Program-made: the position numbers and the translations under genes | Shown: piece by piece, positions 1 to 63,747 of the stretch | How positions within the stretch are numbered: position 1 is the stretch's first letter | Layout: each line of letters opens with the position of its first letter | Assembly: GCA_010093995.1 (NCBI GenBank) | Contig: ML992501.1 | Coordinates: 2,930,244 to 2,993,990 of the forward strand | DNA from: Elsinoe ampelina | Taxonomy: Eukaryota | Direction: 5' to 3' | Length of the DNA stretch: 63,747 bases | Notes under the pieces: model-generated | Told to the model about the DNA's origin: nothing | The model's database searches: none | The model's input: only the letters and a program-made list of their open reading frames with translations

Positions 1-3000
1 GTAGTAGCTTACTTAAGCCTATATAAGCCCTTTATAAGAATAATAAGCTTGTCCTATTTACTAGGAATTAGTATATCTTCTAGGTAGGAGATATAGTTCT
101 TAATATTAATGTCTAGTCTAAGGAATATAGTAACTGCATCTACTATTATAATAACCTAGTTATAATAAAGAGTATATACAAGGATTACTCTTCTAGTTTT
201 AGCTCTTAGTGTTAGTGTAAAGGTTCTAACAAAGTTAATACCTACTCTTTAAGTAAAGCCCCTTATAGTCTAATAAGCCTTATATCTTTTAACTTTGCTA
301 TTAGTAAGCCTCTTAGTCTTAAAGACCTATTTACCTGTTATTAGCCTAATACCTCTTAGTGCCTAAGATTTCTTAATAATTAAAAAGGTTTTAGAGTTAG
401 TTAGAGCCTTCTACTCTATCTCTATTATAGCTTACTAGTAATAACCTTTAGGAGAGAACAGTATATCTCTTACTATTTATAGGTCTAGCTTAAAATTAAC
501 AGCTATAGATCTAATAATCTTACTATTATTAAGTTTCTTATAATTAATCTAGCAATATATTCTAAGGGACCTTCTAATAGTTTCTTATAGTAAGAGAGAT
601 CTCTTCCTTTTACTAGTTAGAGGTTATATATTAAATAGTATAATAAGAAAGTTAATATCCTTATTCTATATATATATTAGTAGTTAATTAACATTAACTA
701 TAGGATTAAAGGTTAAATATAGTTCACTAATAACTTTAGGTAGTAGTATTATAAGGTCTTTACCTTTATAATTAGCAACATTAAGTTACTCCCCCTGTTT
801 ATTAATAGGTTAAGGATCTAGTTTAGGATATTAGTGTTACTTCTTCTATTCTTTAATAAGAGTAGATAATTGTTATTTATATCTAGGGATAGAAGGGTAG
901 TTAGATATTAGTTGTTTAACTTAAAGTTATTTAGCCTAAGTAGTTTATAGATTCTTATAACTAAAGAGTAGTTAGTTATAGCTATAGCCTTAATTATAAT
1001 TATTACTAAATGTCTACTCCCCTTAAAGCTATAAAGCCTTAGGTTGTTATACCTATAGGATATATAGCTATTTAATAACTTATATTACTTAGTCTTTATA
1101 GACTATATTCTTATTAAATGTTANNNNNNNNNNNNNNNNNNNNNNNNNNNNNNNNNNNNNNNNNNNNNNNNNNNNNNNNNNNNNNNNNNNNNNNNNNNNN
1201 NNNNNNNNNNNNNNNNNNNNNNNNNNNNNNNNNNNNNNNNNNNNNNNNNNNNNNNNNNNNNNNNNNNNNNNNNNNNNNNNNNNNNNNNNNNNNNNNNNNN
1301 NNNNNNNNNNNNNNNNNNNNNNNNNNNNNNNNNNNNNNNNNNNNNNNNNNNNNNNNNNNNNNNNNNNNNNNNNNNNNNNNNNNNNNNNNNNNNNNNNNNN
1401 NNNNNNNNNNNNNNNNNNNNNNNNNNNNNNNNNNNNNNNNNNNNNNNNNNNNNNNNNNNNNNNNNNNNNNNNNNNNNNNNNNNNNNNNNNNNNNNNNNNN
1501 NNNNNNNNNNNNNNNNNNNNNNNNNNNNNNNNNNNNNNNNNNNNNNNNNNNNNNNNNNNNNNNNNNNNNNNNNNNNNNNNNNNNNNNNNNNNNNNNNNNN
1601 NNNNNNNNNNNNNNNNNNNNNNNNNNNNNNNNNNNNNNNNNNNNNNNNNNNNNNNNNNNNNNNNNNNNNNNNNNNNNNNNNNNNNNNNNNNNNNNNNNNN
1701 NNNNNNNNNNNNNNNNNNNNNNNNNNNNNNNNNNNNNNNNNNNNNNNNNNNNNNNNNNNNNNNNNNNNNNNNNNNNNNNNNNNNNNNNNNNNNNNNNNNN
1801 NNNNNNNNNNNNNNNNNNNNNNNNNNNNNNNNNNNNNNNNNNNNNNNNNNNNNNNNNNNNNNNNNNNNNNNNNNNNNNNNNNNNNNNNNNNNNNNNNNNN
1901 NNNNNNNNNNNNNNNNNNNNNNNNNNNNNNNNNNNNNNNNNNNNNNNNNNNNNNNNNNNNNNNNNNNNNNNNNNNNNNNNNNNNNNNNNNNNNNNNNNNN
2001 NNNNNNNNNNNNNNNNNNNNNNNNNNNNNNNNNNNNNNNNNNNNNNNNNNNNNNNNNNNNNNNNNNNNNNNNNNNNNNNNNNNNNNNNNNNNNNNNNNNN
2101 NNNNNNNNNNNNNNACTTCTATATTAAGTAGCTTCTTTATACTAATAGCTTATTTAAATTTAAGAACACCTTTATATACCTTAATTGTTAAGAACTATAA
2201 CCTGTCTTTAATAAAGTGCCTTAACGCACTAGAGTTATAGATTACTCTATTCTTACTATAGGTTAAGGATAATAATATAGATACTACTACTGCCCTATAG
2301 ACTAGTATAATAATATTAATATTAGTGTTAGAGCATTTATCTAATTTACCTACCTTAGTAAGTTCTCTAGATTCTTTAATAGCTACTTAACCTTTAACTT
2401 TCTTAGTCTTTAACTTATTACCTTTACCTTTAGCCTTTATGCCTTTATTATTTAACCTGTCTTTGTTATTTCTTTTACTTTAACTCTTTAGTACTTTCTT
2501 AGGGTGCTACTTAAAGTAATCTATATTAGAGTAGACATAATAAGTNNNNNNNNNNNNNNNNNNNNNNNNNNNNNNNNNNNNNNNNNNNNNNNNNNNNNNN
2601 NNNNNNNNNNNNNNNNNNNNNNNNNNNNNNNNNNNNNNNNNNNNNNNNNNNNNNNNNNNNNNNNNNNNNNNNNNNNNNNNNNNNNNNNNNNNNNNNNNNN
2701 NNNNNNNNNNNNNNNNNNNNNNNNNNNNNNNNNNNNNNNNNNNNNNNNNNNNNNNNNNNNNNNNNNNNNNNNNNNNNNNNNNNNNNNNNNNNNNNNNNNN
2801 NNNNNNNNNNNNNNNNNNNNNNNNNNNNNNNNNNNNNNNNNNNNNNNNNNNNNNNNNNNNNNNNNNNNNNNNNNNNNNNNNNNNNNNNNNNNNNNNNNNN
2901 NNNNNNNNNNNNNNNNNNNNNNNNNNNNNNNNNNNNNNNNNNNNNNNNNNNNNNNNNNNNNNNNNNNNNNNNNNNNNNNNNNNNNNNNNNNNNNNNNNNN

Positions 3001-3563
3001 NNNNNNNNNNNNNNNNNNNNNNNNNTCTAGAAGTTTCTTTAAAGTCTTCTAAGTTATACTATAGTAAGGTCTAATAGATTTATAAATCCTTATTATAATA
3101 ATACTATAAGTAATTCTATTATTCTTATACCAGGTCTTATTCCTAACCTTATAGACTACCTTAGTACCTTTACTAGTATCTAGAGCTAGTTCTTTAGGCT
3201 TTATAACTACTAGTATCTAGTTAATGTTATAAATTACATATCTAAGTATATCCTTTTTAAGGAGGGCTACCTTAAGGGTTAATCTCTAAGCATTATAGTT
3301 GCTTTCTCTCTTAAGAATCTAAGTCTCGAGCATTTTTACTAATCTAGATATAATAATAGTAATTAGCTAAAGGCCTATTAATTTAATTAATATAATTAGC
3401 TTGTTTAAGCTGTTTAAACTGTTTAATTAAAGGGTTAATACGGGCTACTATAAGTGTTTATCTTAATGTAGCTAGTCTAGAATTTAGTGTAGGCGGCTTA
3501 GTAATCCTTTTAATAATAACACGCTTAATTTACTATAGCTTTAAGTGCTTTTGTAGAAGCGCC

Positions 3564-15955: not shown

Positions 15956-18913
15956 TCAACGAATCACGATCCCCCTCTCCCTCCCCAACCCAAAGCCCTC
16001 AACTTCCTCTAAAACCTCACTCCCCAAACTTCCCGGCCCGCCTAAACTCCCCACCACCCTCGCCCCTCCCGGCCCCTCCCCCCACACCTCATGAAACTTG
16101 ATACTCGCATCACTCGTCGCCACAACCAGACACCCCTCCCTATCCGTCCTCGTGCCCCTGCCCGTTCTCCTGCCTCGTCCCTTCCACTTTCCCCTTCCCC
16201 TCCCACCTACTCCTGCCTTCTCCGGCCCACCACGGAACGCGATCCCCCACAACGCCCTCTCCTCGCCTGCCCACTCGATCTTGACCCTTACTACACAATC
16301 AGGCCAACTATACACCGCTACTCGGACTTTATGCTCTGGTTGCGCGAAGCCGAATGTAGCTGCGATCTCCCGCCGGGTGGTACTCCACGTCAAACTGGTG
16401 ACTTGGGCGGCGCAATCGATGGCTGCTAGTTTTTGGCCGGACAGAGCGTGGTGGAAGTGGATCCCGCGGTCGTTGGAGCCGGCGCCGAGGGCGAGGAGGG
16501 AGGGTGCCCAGGGAGAGTAGGTCAGTGCTTTGACGGCTGCGGAAAGGGTGATGTGGTGTCGTGCTGAGGAGGAGGGCAGGGTGTTGTACGAGGAGGAGTC
16601 GATGTGTGGTCGCGGGGAGGCGAAGGGATAGGATCTCGCTGGTCTTAGGCTCGTCGGTATGCTGATGCGAGGGTGAGCATTGCCAGAAGGACCAGTGGCA
16701 TTCGGAGCTCGTCGAGACGATCGGCCGGAACGTTTGCTGTTGGGAAAGATTGTCCTGGCCTCAAATATGTAGACGCTGTTGTCGTTGCTACCGGTGGCGA
16801 GAAAGGCAGCATCGATCGACCAAGCTAAACCACAGACTTGTTGGCTGTGGGCTTCCAATCGGACAAGGATATTCAGAGCGCCATGCCAGTCATACAGACT
16901 TCGTTCGTCTTGATCAGGGTACTCAACAGCATAGACGTAGATGTTGCCAGCTTCGTCTCCGACCGCAAGTAGTTCCATCTCCGCCTTGACGGTGGAGTCG
17001 CGATAGGAGTGTCGCCTGATTTGTCGCGGAGAGAATGATACGCAAGACACTGGCGAGGGCTGATCAGAATCGAAGCAAGGTTCTCTGGCAAGCGTGTTCC
17101 ACAGCGTTACCCTACCATCGGCTCTTCCAATCGCCAGTATTGATTTCTGACCTGCCTCTGAGGAGAAGGAAAGAGAAGTGATGTGGCTTGAGAATGGTGA
17201 TGTCAAGCTCTCTGGCGTCTTTACGCCCTCTGCTTCCGACTAGAAATACACATTCGATCCAAGGCCGACTGCTAGGCATTGAGCGTTTGAACAGTAAGAT
17301 AGAAGTGAGCAGTAGTAGTCGTCTCGTAGACCAGGCGCATCCAGCACTGTATGGTGGGTCAGTCATGTCCCCGGCGTATTCTAGCTTGGACTCATCTGAA
17401 GGGTATGGCTGGCAGAGTTGGCTTCCGGACCATTATACCATGTGCTGAGAGGTTTGTCAGCATGTCAGAAGCGGACCTGCTTGACATACTCACGACTCGA
17501 TGGTGAATCATAGGTCCAAGCATTGTCTTTCCAAGCGGGCTTTGGTCGAGCAACGCTGAATCTGTCGTAATACCACGGCAAGCCTGACGATGGCCGGAGT
17601 AATGGCGGATTCAGGATCTTCTCGCATAGATGGTAGTCAAAAGCTACAGCGAGACGCTCTTTGAACATGTCTCGTTCCTCTGTCGGATCTCCTTTGCCAA
17701 AGAAGTCTGAGGCATGCAGTGGTGCATTTGTACCACTCGCGACTCGACGTCCCCTTCCATCCGAAATGCTGTGGACACCGTCGGAAAGAATTGTGTTGCC
17801 GTCCATGAAAAAGTTCGATCCTGTACTGACTGATCGTCGTGGGGCAGTGTATCTGTCTGCCCTCGGAAGAGCCGCTGCCATACCTGGCGTGCTGATTAAT
17901 CGCGAAGGGTAAGATCTGAATACGTCCAGGATGCGCTCGCTTGTCCTCGTACTCCGTAATGGGATAGCTCCGAAAGGGTCCAACGTCTCTGAATCTTGTC
18001 TTGTAAGTCGCTCAAATGTACTGAGCTCTCGAGGTGGCGTTGACAGAAGAGACTGGGTCCGTCCATCCCTCTCTCCGGATCTTCCGGGTACAAATCGGTC
18101 ATCCAACCGGAGACGCTTGCTCCCAACGCCAACGGTCCTGGGAGATCGATACTGCTTTGGCTTTGGATGCAAGACATGAGCATCTTTCGACTCTATCTGG
18201 TTCGTGGTGAGCCGAGAATTAGTGCTAGACGTGGTTATGACAGGCTGTGCGTCCGCCTTTTGCGTGACTACTGCCTCTGCTGTGTGTGATCGGGTCAATG
18301 ACGCATGCGTGTGATCTTCGGGATAGGATCCTGTCGATGGTTGTGCATCGTGATTGTTCAAGGAATTGCCTTCCTGACTGTGGTCCTTCCTGCTCTCTGC
18401 ACATCCGTCGAATGTTCCCGAGAATCTCAATGATACGTCGCCCTTGTTGCGGTTGTGAAGGACTCGAGTCTTGCTTACCACTCGACGTCGAAGTCCAGAG
18501 TCCAAGCAAGAATCTGACTTTGGGCGTTCTCCAGATGCCTTTCGATCTGTGACTGGTCCCTTGAGCGCCTTCCCTGTGCTCTTGTGGACTCTTAACTTTT
18601 CCCTTCCAGCGAATAGGTCCGACGGTAGTCGTTGTCGCTGGTGCTTTGGCGGGTCGTTCTCGCAGCTCGAGGATGACTTGTGACGACGATCCGGGTCGAG
18701 GATCAAGGTCTCGCCTCTGCTGTCCGTAGTTCGAGATTGAGCCTCAGAAAGCACACGGCCATGTTCCAACATGTACCCTGAACTTGCTCGGTGGTGCTCT
18801 TGGCCAACCGAAACATGTGGTGAGGCTTCCTCAGCATGGTGACCCGCATTGTTGCTCAGGGCGAGCAGAGGTCCAGAGACAGGCTCCTCCGATAGTTTGC
18901 GAGTGACCATCAT
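15956..18913 (-). CDS. AMA1: Cdc20/Fizzy-family WD40 APC/C activator, Ama1-like (meiotic), with an in-frame TAG at 17240-17242; start codon uncertain
   Basis: C-box DRFVP; PFRVLDAPGLRDDYYCSLL; HSQQVCGLAW; ATGSNDN; AAVKAL; GAGSNDRGIHF; AQVTSLTWS; C-terminal IR tail. Introns 17445-17493 (GT-AG) and 17349-17395 (AT-AC). The Ama1 subfamily call rests on recalled similarity to Pezizomycotina Ama1-type proteins. Confidence 0.8.
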
Positions 18914-62319: not shown

Positions 62320-62695
62320 GTTTGATCTACCTAGTCGGGGCCAACGAGTGGATCGATGAGACAAGCAGCCTGCGAACGTCCTTGTCCTTGTCTTCTGCAC
62401 TCACGGATAAGAATGAAAGTCGTGCTTACCGACAAGTCCATTCAGTTTTGAACTTGATTGGATATGGGAGCCTGCAATCAGGGGCATGGTACTACCAGAG
62501 AACAGCTGTCAAAGACCACGATCGAATATAGAAGCCTGAAGGGGAATCAGGTATCGACGCAAAAGTAGGATATGCAATTAATCAAGGCCGAATTCCAAGC
62601 GGATATCTTCTTCCCGCATGGCGACCTGGTGGCGGGGCCCTATCCAATGACATCGCAGCTTGAGCCGAGCTTTTGGTCATTTGGTGCTGGGGAAA

Positions 62696-62955
62696 TGTTG
62701 ACTTGTGTAGGGGAGGAAAAAGGATTAATTACTGCCTGATCCACCAAACTAAGGTGGATTGTAACTACATAAATACTCAACCTAGTATACTAAAAGATAG
62801 CTAAATCAAAAGAACTCCTTAATAGCAACAGATTAAGACAATAACTATCTAATTTAATTATGAATTAGTAGAGTAGTAGATAAGTGTTTAGTTCCACTAG
62901 GGGATAAACTAAATCAAGGTCCTTCTTAGCGCTCTAGCTTATACCTCAGTTAACA
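62696..62955 (-). repeat. 3' LTR (~260 bp) of the right copia element
   Basis: Termini TGTTGACT (62696) and AGTTAACA (62948-62955) are inverted repeats with one RIP C>T. On the minus strand the LTR is preceded by a polypurine-tract-like AAAGGGGTG (62956-62964). Confidence 0.65.
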
Positions 62956-63747
62956 CACCCCTTTACTAAATAGCTATAAGGCTGTTATAGCTAGTTAGTA
63001 GACTACTAACTCAAGGGATAGCTATTATAAGAAGGCCTTATACCTTCTAGATAGCAATAACTTAGTTAAGCTATTAGCTAAGGTATCTACCGATAGTGTC
63101 TATGTTACTAAGATAGGGCTAGATAGATCTCTAGCTAGGTTAATCTCTTGTCTTAGCTAGTAATAATAGATATTAATATAATAAAGGCGTATATTAAGCT
63201 TCTTAATTAGACTAGTAATAAGGCTAATTGTTTACTAATTGTTATACTAAATACTAACATGTTTAAGGGGATAGATAAAGGCTATTAGCCTCCTCTACTA
63301 TATAGCTTGCTTAGTAGTCTCTATAAGAGTAAGTAGCTTAGCCTCTATAGTTAATATTATAACTATTAGTTACTTTATAGCCTTCTAGTTAATTAATCCT
63401 TAAAATATCTTAAAGAGATAGCCTTAAAGGCTCTTCCTTGTTAGGTAGCTACTAAAGCTAGCATCTAAGGAAGCTTAAAAGATTAGTAGTAGCATTAAGC
63501 TATTAAAGGTAAGAGCTAAATTCTTAGTTTTATAGAGATATTAGATTACTCTATTTACTATCCTCTAGTAAGTTAGTAATAGATTTATTAGATGCTCTAA
63601 CAATCTAGAAGTAGCAAAGGCTATATTAGGCCTTATAATAGCTGCTATAAAGTTAATAGATTCTACCTTTTACTAATATAAGTAGATCTCTTATAGTAAT
63701 ACTTAGCCTTTATAAGGTTAGAGTATCTTAATTAGTAGTAGTGTTAA
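62696..63747 (-). mobile_element. RIP-degraded Ty1/copia retrotransposon, 3' part (RNase H, PPT, LTR)
   Basis: The minus frame reads YINIYYY*LRQE and VT*TLSVDTLANSLTKLL. Reversing RIP changes gives the copia RNase H motifs HIDIHHHWLRQE and W...ADGLTK (63061-63078). Strong TpA excess. Confidence 0.85.

Follow-up and report, generated by a model that had tools for sequence, protein, structure and literature searches.

The DNA analysed here, referred to as the window, is a stretch of 63,747 nucleotides from the genome of Elsinoe ampelina, a grapevine pathogen belonging to the Dothideomycetes; a source outside the Sordariomycetes had already been suspected in the first-pass annotation. On its minus strand lies a gene for an APC/C activator, probably of the AMA1 type. 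The three hallmarks of the Cdc20/Cdh1/Ama1 coactivators, a C-box, a Cdc20/Fizzy-type WD40 propeller and an IR tail, were all found, which bears out the family assignment proposed earlier. The protein matches Pfam PF24807 with E = 4.8e-57 and 193.9 bits, 6 bits below the curated cut-off of 200, with a long insert interrupting the domain. Among solved structures, the PDB chains of Slp1, Cdh1 and Cdc20 match the propeller at E values of 6e-33 to 8e-23. In terms of sequence similarity, the solved chains of the paralogues Cdc20 and Cdh1 are far weaker matches. The features of the locus are as follows, with coordinates given in the window.

17494..18913, minus strand: coding part of exon 1, a long and poorly conserved N-terminal region with its predicted start ATG at 18913..18911
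18100..18086, minus strand: C-box DRFVP within exon 1, identified as a DR[FY]IP-like sequence motif
17445..17493, minus strand: intron 1, 49 nt, GT..AG, defined by a joint in RNA contig X3
17396..17444, minus strand: exon 2, a micro-exon coding for ..HGIMVRKPTLPAIPFR, defined by RNA joints and absent from the public annotation
17349..17395, minus strand: intron 2, 47 nt, non-canonical AT..AC (TG..CA if moved by 1 nt), defined by a joint in RNA contig X3
15956..17348, minus strand: exon 3, the last, containing VLDAPGLRDDYY..., TAG, 427 sense codons for WD40 propeller and IR tail, and TGA
17240..17269, minus strand: 30-nt GT..AG stretch treated as an intron by the public model, which thereby skips VGLGSNVYF and the stop; unspliced in RNA contig X3
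17240..17242, minus strand: in-frame TAG in the region of the first WD40 blade, codon 526 of 953 counted from the first in-frame ATG (predicted start, 18913)
17239..15959, minus strand: open reading frame after the TAG, 427 sense codons, ending ...VIR
15964..15959, minus strand: IR tail, with the protein ending ...GIVIR
15958..15956, minus strand: terminal stop TGA

When the three exons are joined at the junctions seen in RNA, they form one frame, interrupted only by the TAG before it ends at the terminal TGA. Apart from this stop the gene is intact, as the first-pass annotation had held: the spliced frame carries a single internal stop, and C-box, propeller and IR tail are all in place. The micro-exon is supported by its PFR|VLDAP junction, which agrees with the homologues. 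The boundary of exon 3 is given here for the AT-AC reading of intron 2, and the alignment permits a shift of 1 nt; a branch-like CTGAC motif is located close to the 3' end of this intron. At 17242..17240 the frame reads ...CLAVGLGSNVYF-TAG-SEAEGVK..., so that the stop replaces the Trp of a VY[LF]W motif.

The residue lost to the stop is otherwise invariant. Trp occupies the column in 237 of the 240 aligned database homologues; the remaining three lack any residue in it, two of them being annotations from the Elsinoe group and one an ORF that begins 5 residues later. Among 80 environmental loci, 10 stop short of the site; the other 70 cover it, and every one of these has TGG and none has TAG. 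Schizosaccharomyces pombe Slp1 (PDB 4aez) reads NVYVW at the equivalent place. The minus-strand reading together with these counts confirms the earlier statement that the TAG sits at a conserved Trp, and the ancestral codon is TGG. As it begins only 5 residues past the site, ORF P0107, which shares 79% identity with the TGG-bearing locus L009, was dropped as evidence.

The stop is present in RNA. Contig X3, which derives from another sample and another study and was recognised as RNA from its splice joints, is 1279 nt long with a word depth of 16.2 and has both introns spliced out. It reads across the site without a differing letter, and its TAG is unedited; the sample is unstaged, and contigs drop minority variants. 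In this contig, the sole RNA contig over the site, no A>G change was seen at the TAG. A second X3 RNA contig spans 17676..18250 and continues past the examined stretch, and X4, X5 and X6 cover 16240-16568 only, outside the stop site. The gene is transcribed and correctly spliced. A sequencing error, which had been raised as an alternative, is contradicted by the identical letters of the X3 contig from a second sample and study.

The public gene model hides the stop behind its 30-nt "intron". Because the X3 contig is continuous across these 30 nt, this intron is an annotation artefact. Both Elsinoe models, P0242 and P0002, show a gap of 10 residues at the site. The latter is a protein of E. batatas, 90% identical, and the 10 residues it omits are precisely those missing from the E. 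ampelina model. The false intron of the E. ampelina model ends in the AG of the TAG, and the E. batatas codon must therefore be NAG; since TAG is the only NAG codon that can be reached from TGG in one step, E. batatas most likely has TAG as well. Judging from this annotation footprint, the stop is probably common to the two species. Protein database searches returned no further Elsinoe AMA1 proteins beyond the E. batatas, E. ampelina and S. murrayae models, and a query with the N-terminal region gave 4 matches, none of which is informative on the stop site. False mini-introns in public gene models hide such stops, and protein databases therefore under-report them.

Of the 427 residues downstream of the TAG, 33 differ between E. 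ampelina and E. batatas. These differences avoid conserved positions: they fall in 5 of the 170 columns with conservation of 80% or more as opposed to 19 of the 120 variable columns (Fisher p = 1.3e-4). Of the columns conserved at 95% or more, 90 of 98 are kept, and the sole departure private to E. ampelina is F282Y. Against a set of 116 outgroup homologues, identity averages 0.514 for E. ampelina and 0.510 for E. batatas, compared with 0.526 and 0.521 for two relatives that carry TGG. By this comparison of identities, an acceleration of rate is absent, and the region past the stop still looks constrained. None of the signs of a decaying pseudogene (more stops or frameshifts, relaxed constraint, faster evolution) was found. 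The open frame alone is weak evidence, because 19% of the runs of a neutral simulation at the observed 33 differences acquired no new stop; its use as proof of selection was set aside for the same P = 0.19.

A closely related situation is known in Fusarium graminearum. The first-pass annotation named AMA1 of this species as a gene corrected by sexual-stage A-to-I editing, and the literature agrees: FgAMA1 is PSC33, with proven UAG>UGG editing that reaches 21-63% in perithecia (Qi et al., 2024, PMC10776026). As in Elsinoe, it is the orthologous AMA1 that carries a Trp-derived in-frame TAG in its WD40 part while being otherwise intact. The two cases differ in that one belongs to the Sordariomycetes and the other to the Dothideomycetes, and in that editing is proven in Fusarium whereas Elsinoe is a candidate. 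The same study describes six independent origins of TAG at the PSC33 site within the Sordariomycetes, and stops at PSC sites in single species of other classes; its tables give the PSC33 site as a chromosome coordinate only, chr3:5461540 in gene FG3G26160 (PMC10776026). In the present alignment, the products of six Sordariomycete-like ORFs end in ...CVS, just ahead of N. crassa W513. It is N. crassa W435, 78 residues before W513, that lines up with the Elsinoe stop; Dothideomycetes have F at the W513 position. Taking the truncated Sordariomycete-like ORFs as a guide, the Elsinoe site is probably not the position that is edited in Sordariomycetes.

Two other systems are instructive. Sexual-stage A-to-I editing in Pyronema confluens (Pezizomycetes) is held to be independent in origin, and this species is described as having an extra copy of Ame1 (PMC11156358, PMC11087585). 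It would provide a precedent for editing outside the Sordariomycetes, while Elsinoe is a candidate from sequence alone. In Saccharomyces cerevisiae, the AMA1 intron undergoes meiosis-specific splicing (Cooper et al., 2000, as cited in PMC10776026), so that the same gene is made unreadable outside meiosis by a gate at the RNA level. That gate is an intron, however, whereas in Elsinoe both introns are already spliced out of the RNA that carries the stop.

The surroundings of the TAG were compared with the preferences described for A-to-I editing, which are U at -1, A or G at +1, +3 and +4, C or U at -2 (PMC9600606), and a location in a hairpin loop. Within the primary context CU[A]GUCG, the bases at -2, -1, +1 and +4 are preferred ones, that at +2 is neutral and that at +3 is depleted, so that 4 of the 6 neighbouring positions are of the preferred kind. 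In the predicted fold of the ±30-nt region, the candidate A is placed in a 2-nt bulge and not in a hairpin loop, and shuffled sequences fold just as well (z = -0.2). According to a recent review, A-to-I mRNA editing is reported only for Sordariomycetes and Pezizomycetes, and it was not found in fruiting bodies of A. nidulans and B. cinerea (PMC11156358). According to another paper, the Tad3-Ame1 interaction on which editing depends originated in the Sordariomycetes (PMC11087585), and our searches found no published report of A-to-I editing in Dothideomycetes. [quoted passage not shown] A scan of the window for pairs of long ORFs split by one stop gave 17 pairs, all resembling non-coding frames; the scan misses short exons and does not list the AMA1 site itself.

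These observations suggest that AMA1 of Elsinoe may be a conditionally readable gene and a credible candidate for stage-specific correction of a stop, a reading to which we give serious weight short of calling it probable. With a UAG at the invariant Trp codon, ordinary translation would end after the N-terminal half that bears the C-box, and the uncorrected product would have neither WD40 propeller nor IR tail. Synthesis of the full-length activator would depend on conversion of the UAG into a Trp codon. The most likely route would be deamination of A to I during development of the ascus, giving UIG that is read as UGG, as for FgAMA1/PSC33. We infer both that a correction step would exist and that it would consist of sexual-stage-specific A-to-I editing. 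Counting against this reading are the unedited TAG of the X3 contig, the bulged position of the A and the depleted base at +3, the taxonomic range of the editing described so far, and the environmental relatives, among which the TAG is not widespread (0 of 70). A more tentative and rather doubtful extension is that at least some Dothideomycetes, Elsinoe among them, may have their own sexual-stage A-to-I system, with AMA1 having become stop-gated and dependent on editing by convergence, at another Trp than the one affected six times in Sordariomycetes. If true, the Elsinoe system would be the third fungal lineage with sexual-stage A-to-I mRNA editing, and it would hint that AMA1 is generally under pressure to be silent except in the sexual stage.

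Nearly as likely as correction of the stop is a young loss-of-function allele, that is, an ordinary nonsense pseudogene that arose by G>A in a mostly conidial lineage and whose decay has not yet begun. Such pseudogenes share with the Elsinoe gene the creation of the stop by one G>A transition, and TGG>TAG belongs to the most frequent kind of change. The described rarity or absence of the sexual stage in many regions (PMC8295512) fits relaxed selection. The TAG of the RNA contig is unedited, no editing system is known in the class, and a frame left open by chance is not improbable at P = 0.19. The lack of more Elsinoe AMA1 proteins in the searches could reflect either poor retention of the gene across the genus or just poor annotation. 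Unlike in an ordinary pseudogene, however, the stop is probably present in two species, with the matching 10-residue skip of the E. batatas model implying that the TAG predates the species split. Moreover, the sequence downstream appears constrained, later differences avoiding conserved columns (p = 1.3e-4) and showing no acceleration relative to the TGG-bearing relatives. A second lesion is absent, and the gene is transcribed into an RNA that is accurately spliced, even at the non-canonical intron.

It is unlikely that the stop is bypassed without editing, with low-level UAG readthrough or a suppressor tRNA giving enough full-length protein. Constraint past the stop would demand some route to a full-length product, and since the TAG is in the last exon, no exon junction lies downstream of it. 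Through near-cognate decoding, however, Trp would seldom be placed at a UAG, and this is the residue found in 237 of 240 homologues; the window contains no tRNA genes. To our knowledge, the UAG-UCGGAA context matches no recognised readthrough motif.

A functional truncated product, consisting of the N-terminal half with the C-box and lacking the propeller, is quite improbable; conservation downstream would then have to be maintained otherwise, for example by internal initiation. The mRNA that carries the stop is present at fair depth and its N-terminal half retains the C-box, both of which such a product would need. What is conserved downstream, however, is the Cdc20-family propeller and the IR tail, and in APC/C coactivators these work only together with the part that contains the C-box. 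In addition, the first Met past the stop sits within the propeller.

Repeat-induced point mutation (RIP) as the source of the change, a proposal that concerns the origin of the stop and not its present function, is very improbable. The earlier suggestion of a RIP origin holds with regard to context, as TGG>TAG is a G>A change in the TpG/CpA context used by RIP. Furthermore, the non-N parts of the first 1 kb of the window are AT-rich and have RIP-like dinucleotide indices. It fails on the gene itself, whose TpA/ApT of 0.59, (CpA+TpG)/(ApC+GpT) of 1.14 and GC of 0.55 show no RIP signature (thresholds are about 0.89 and 1.03 for the two indices, respectively). A single transition is seen where many would be expected, and over 12 kb separate the AT-rich block from the gene. 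The count of RIP windows, 9 of 126, is unreliable, as some of the flagged windows hold runs of N. Hardly conceivable, finally, is an error of sequencing or assembly, or a genuine short intron that removes the stop, since the GT..AG intron placed over it by public models is opposed by RNA that reads without a break or a differing letter, and its excision would remove 10 conserved residues.

Which fungal classes edit their mRNA is treated as an open question in recent reviews (PMC11156358, PMC7306014). The TAG in Elsinoe AMA1 offers one exact nucleotide to examine in the fruiting-body RNA of a Dothideomycete, and the gene concerned is the same one that is stop-gated in Fusarium. If the site is edited, restorative editing and the idea of a survival-reproduction trade-off would reach past the Sordariomycetes and converge on AMA1. 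If it is unedited, the locus would be a clean example of how a crop pathogen, about whose sexual stage little is understood, begins to lose a gene of the sexual cycle.

The gene for the AMA1-like APC/C activator reads ...AQCLAVGLGSNVYF-TAG-SEAEGVKTPE... on the minus strand of the window sequence, with the TAG at 17242..17240. Upstream of the TAG lies a 491-codon open frame containing the C-box DRFVP (18100..18086), and downstream of it 427 sense codons run to the C-terminal end ...GIVIR. When the message is spliced at the observed junctions, a single frame is obtained, interrupted only by the TAG and closed by the terminal TGA. Counted from the first ATG (the putative start), the TAG falls at codon 526 of 953. 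If the TAG is translated as Trp, the Pfam CDC20/Fizzy WD40 domain is recognised in the last exon (E = 4.8e-57) at 193.9 bits, which is 6 bits below the curated cut-off, the domain being split by an insert. The solved chains of Slp1, Cdh1, and Cdc20 are matched as well (E = 6e-33 to 8e-23). The first-pass annotation had described an in-frame TAG at a conserved Trp in an otherwise intact AMA1-like gene of a host apparently outside the Sordariomycetes. The stop was confirmed in the window sequence and an RNA contig, it is the only lesion in the spliced frame, and Elsinoe ampelina belongs to the Dothideomycetes (Myriangiales).

The RNA contig (1279 nt, word depth 16.2) comes from sequencing run X3, one of four runs, out of eight, that were compared with the window; this run carries the same species label but derives from a sample and study other than the probable source of the assembly. 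The contig lies on 16255-17347, 17395-17444, and 17494-17629 with zero differing letters. It represents spliced minus-strand RNA in which intron 1 is GT..AG on the minus strand, a micro-exon of 49-50 nt is present, and the junction between ...PFR and VLDAP... agrees with the homologues. By this contig the three-exon model proposed earlier was right, micro-exon included. The second intron has the following form:

Intron 2: 17349-17395, minus strand, 47 nt, AT..AC (ATGAGT...CATAC), or TG..CA if shifted by one base, from the X3 contig

It resembles the rare U2-type AT-AC introns. The RNA contig joins ...TTCAG to AGTGCTGG... here, and environmental loci with an intron at this place read ...CAG followed by T before the Val codon, a normal acceptor. 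Runs X4, X5 (other organism label), and X6 each gave one contig of 203-261 nt within 16240-16568, 100% identical to this part of the last exon and matching nothing else in the gene.

KAF2228183.1 (P0242), the public E. ampelina protein model, equals the window translation at every aligned residue and differs only where it omits residues, which identifies the window as E. ampelina. This model and that of E. batatas (P0002) are wrong in three ways across 15956-18913 (minus strand): translation begins at an internal Met, so that the C-box is lost, the micro-exon is left out, and a 30-nt GT..AG false intron masks the stop. With gene models of this kind, genes interrupted by a stop do not show up in protein databases. 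Because the X3 contig is continuous through 17240-17269 with TAG retained, the stop is present in the mRNA and the 30-nt "intron" is unspliced. Contigs lose minority variants, so the TAG in X3 means that the majority of molecules are unedited, not that editing is absent.

Among 241 aligned proteins, including the query with an inserted W, the Trp column holds W in 237 of the 240 database entries. The column is empty in the remaining three: 10 residues are missing here from the E. batatas model, the S. murrayae model begins beyond this point, and the unnamed ORF P0107 begins 5 residues past it. Since genes with stops are under-represented in protein sets, DNA of environmental loci was added; 80 loci encoding relatives were examined, and all 70 that cover the site have TGG. 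The equivalent position of S. pombe Slp1 reads NVYVW. Judged by these alignments, the Trp is invariant and TAG is rare.

The E. batatas model is 90% identical, has its own substitutions nearby, and lacks exactly the segment missing from the E. ampelina model, VGLGSNVYF together with the stop position. The last two bases of the false intron in E. ampelina are the AG of the TAG. Because the intron of the E. batatas model ends at the same place, its codon would be NAG, and with an ancestral TGG this leads to TAG, the sole one-step derivative of TGG. The TAG is therefore very probably common to both species, as read from an annotation in which the second model was possibly guided by the first. After the stop, 33 of 427 residues differ between them: 5/170 at columns at least 80% conserved among other homologues, 9/137 at intermediate columns, and 19/120 at variable or sparsely aligned columns (conserved versus variable, Fisher's test p = 1.3e-4). 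The consensus residue is kept in 90 of 98 columns at least 95% conserved; most departures also occur in TGG-bearing relatives, and one, F282Y, is found in E. ampelina alone. Against 116 outgroup homologues, over 300 shared columns, the mean identity of E. ampelina is 0.514 and that of E. batatas 0.510, compared with 0.526 for Myriangium and 0.521 for Dothideomycetidae sp. 11243, both of which have W. The open frame by itself is weak evidence, because 19% of neutral simulation runs with ~33 amino-acid changes gained no new stop. If the TAG predates the species split, selection on the propeller continued after the stop arose.

The first-pass statement that Fusarium graminearum AMA1 is an editing target was borne out. 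According to PMC10776026, this gene is the premature-stop-corrected gene PSC33, in which the level of UAG-to-UGG editing is 0% at the four earliest stages and 21-63% in perithecia. TAG at the equivalent site has six independent origins within Sordariomycetes, and stops at several PSC sites occur in single species of other classes (PMC10776026). In N. crassa the residue aligned with the Elsinoe stop is W435 (LLYGW). The N. crassa protein was used to query a representative library, and of the 386 proteins then scanned none ends before W435, and six unnamed ORF products, which form three clusters at 90% identity, stop exactly before W513 (CLSW-KP):

ORF products ending in ...CVS: P0359, P0362, P0372, P0374, P0377, P0378; unnamed, Sordariomycete-like AMA1

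These ends probably reflect the recurrent premature TAG known from PSC33. At the W513 position, 159 of the motif-matching proteins carry F and 56 carry W. Dothideomycetes carry Phe there, including E. ampelina (CVSFSP), and TAG is not one step from F. Since six ORFs end before W513 and none before W435, these unnamed proteins suggest that the Elsinoe stop is probably a separate event at another Trp of the same gene: the edited Fusarium site would be W513-equivalent, whereas the Elsinoe stop is W435-equivalent.

Stage-specific correction of the stop by editing is a plausible and unproven reading, which we hold tentatively. PMC11156358 gives Sordariomycetes and Pyronema as the fungi with reported editing; in fruiting bodies of A. 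nidulans and B. cinerea none was found. PMC11087585 places the origin of the Tad3-Ame1 interaction in Sordariomycetes and treats Pyronema as a case of independent origin. No report of editing in Dothideomycetes was found in the available text of the literature searched, including papers of 2023-2026, and one review regards the matter as open. The RNA context at the stop, C U [A] G U C G, has preferred bases at -2, -1, +1, and +4, a neutral base at +2, and a depleted one at +3, by the neighbour-base preferences of A-to-I sites (PMC9600606). In the predicted +/-30-nt fold, the A is not in a hairpin loop but in a 2-nt bulge, and the fold (-14 kcal/mol) is not more stable than shuffles (z = -0.2). 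The fit to known editing signals appears moderate and decides nothing.

The main rival, that the gene is a young pseudogene, is nearly as likely. In its favour, the sexual stage is rare (PMC8295512), the sole RNA over the site shows TAG, and the case for a shared TAG depends on an annotation. The remaining weight is spread across other routes. Translational readthrough of the UAG would also yield full-length protein, but near-cognate decoding seldom inserts Trp, and we know of no readthrough motif that matches the stop context. A sequencing error or a real mini-intron is excluded by the X3 contig.

As for the origin of the mutation, the TGG>TAG change lies in the RIP dinucleotide context, and a RIP signature is absent in the gene when TpA/ApT (0.59) and (CpA+TpG)/(ApC+GpT) (1.14) are set against commonly used thresholds. 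Elsewhere in the window, AT-rich stretches at 1-3500 and about 62500-63500 (GC 0.24-0.29 where letters are present) flank N runs. N runs were seen at 1201-1500, with GC 0 at 1501-2000. Within the first 1 kb the TpA/ApT ratio is about 1.7-1.8, RIP indices of N-containing windows being unreliable. These AT-rich stretches look RIP-like, and this would imply that the lineage once had a working sexual cycle.
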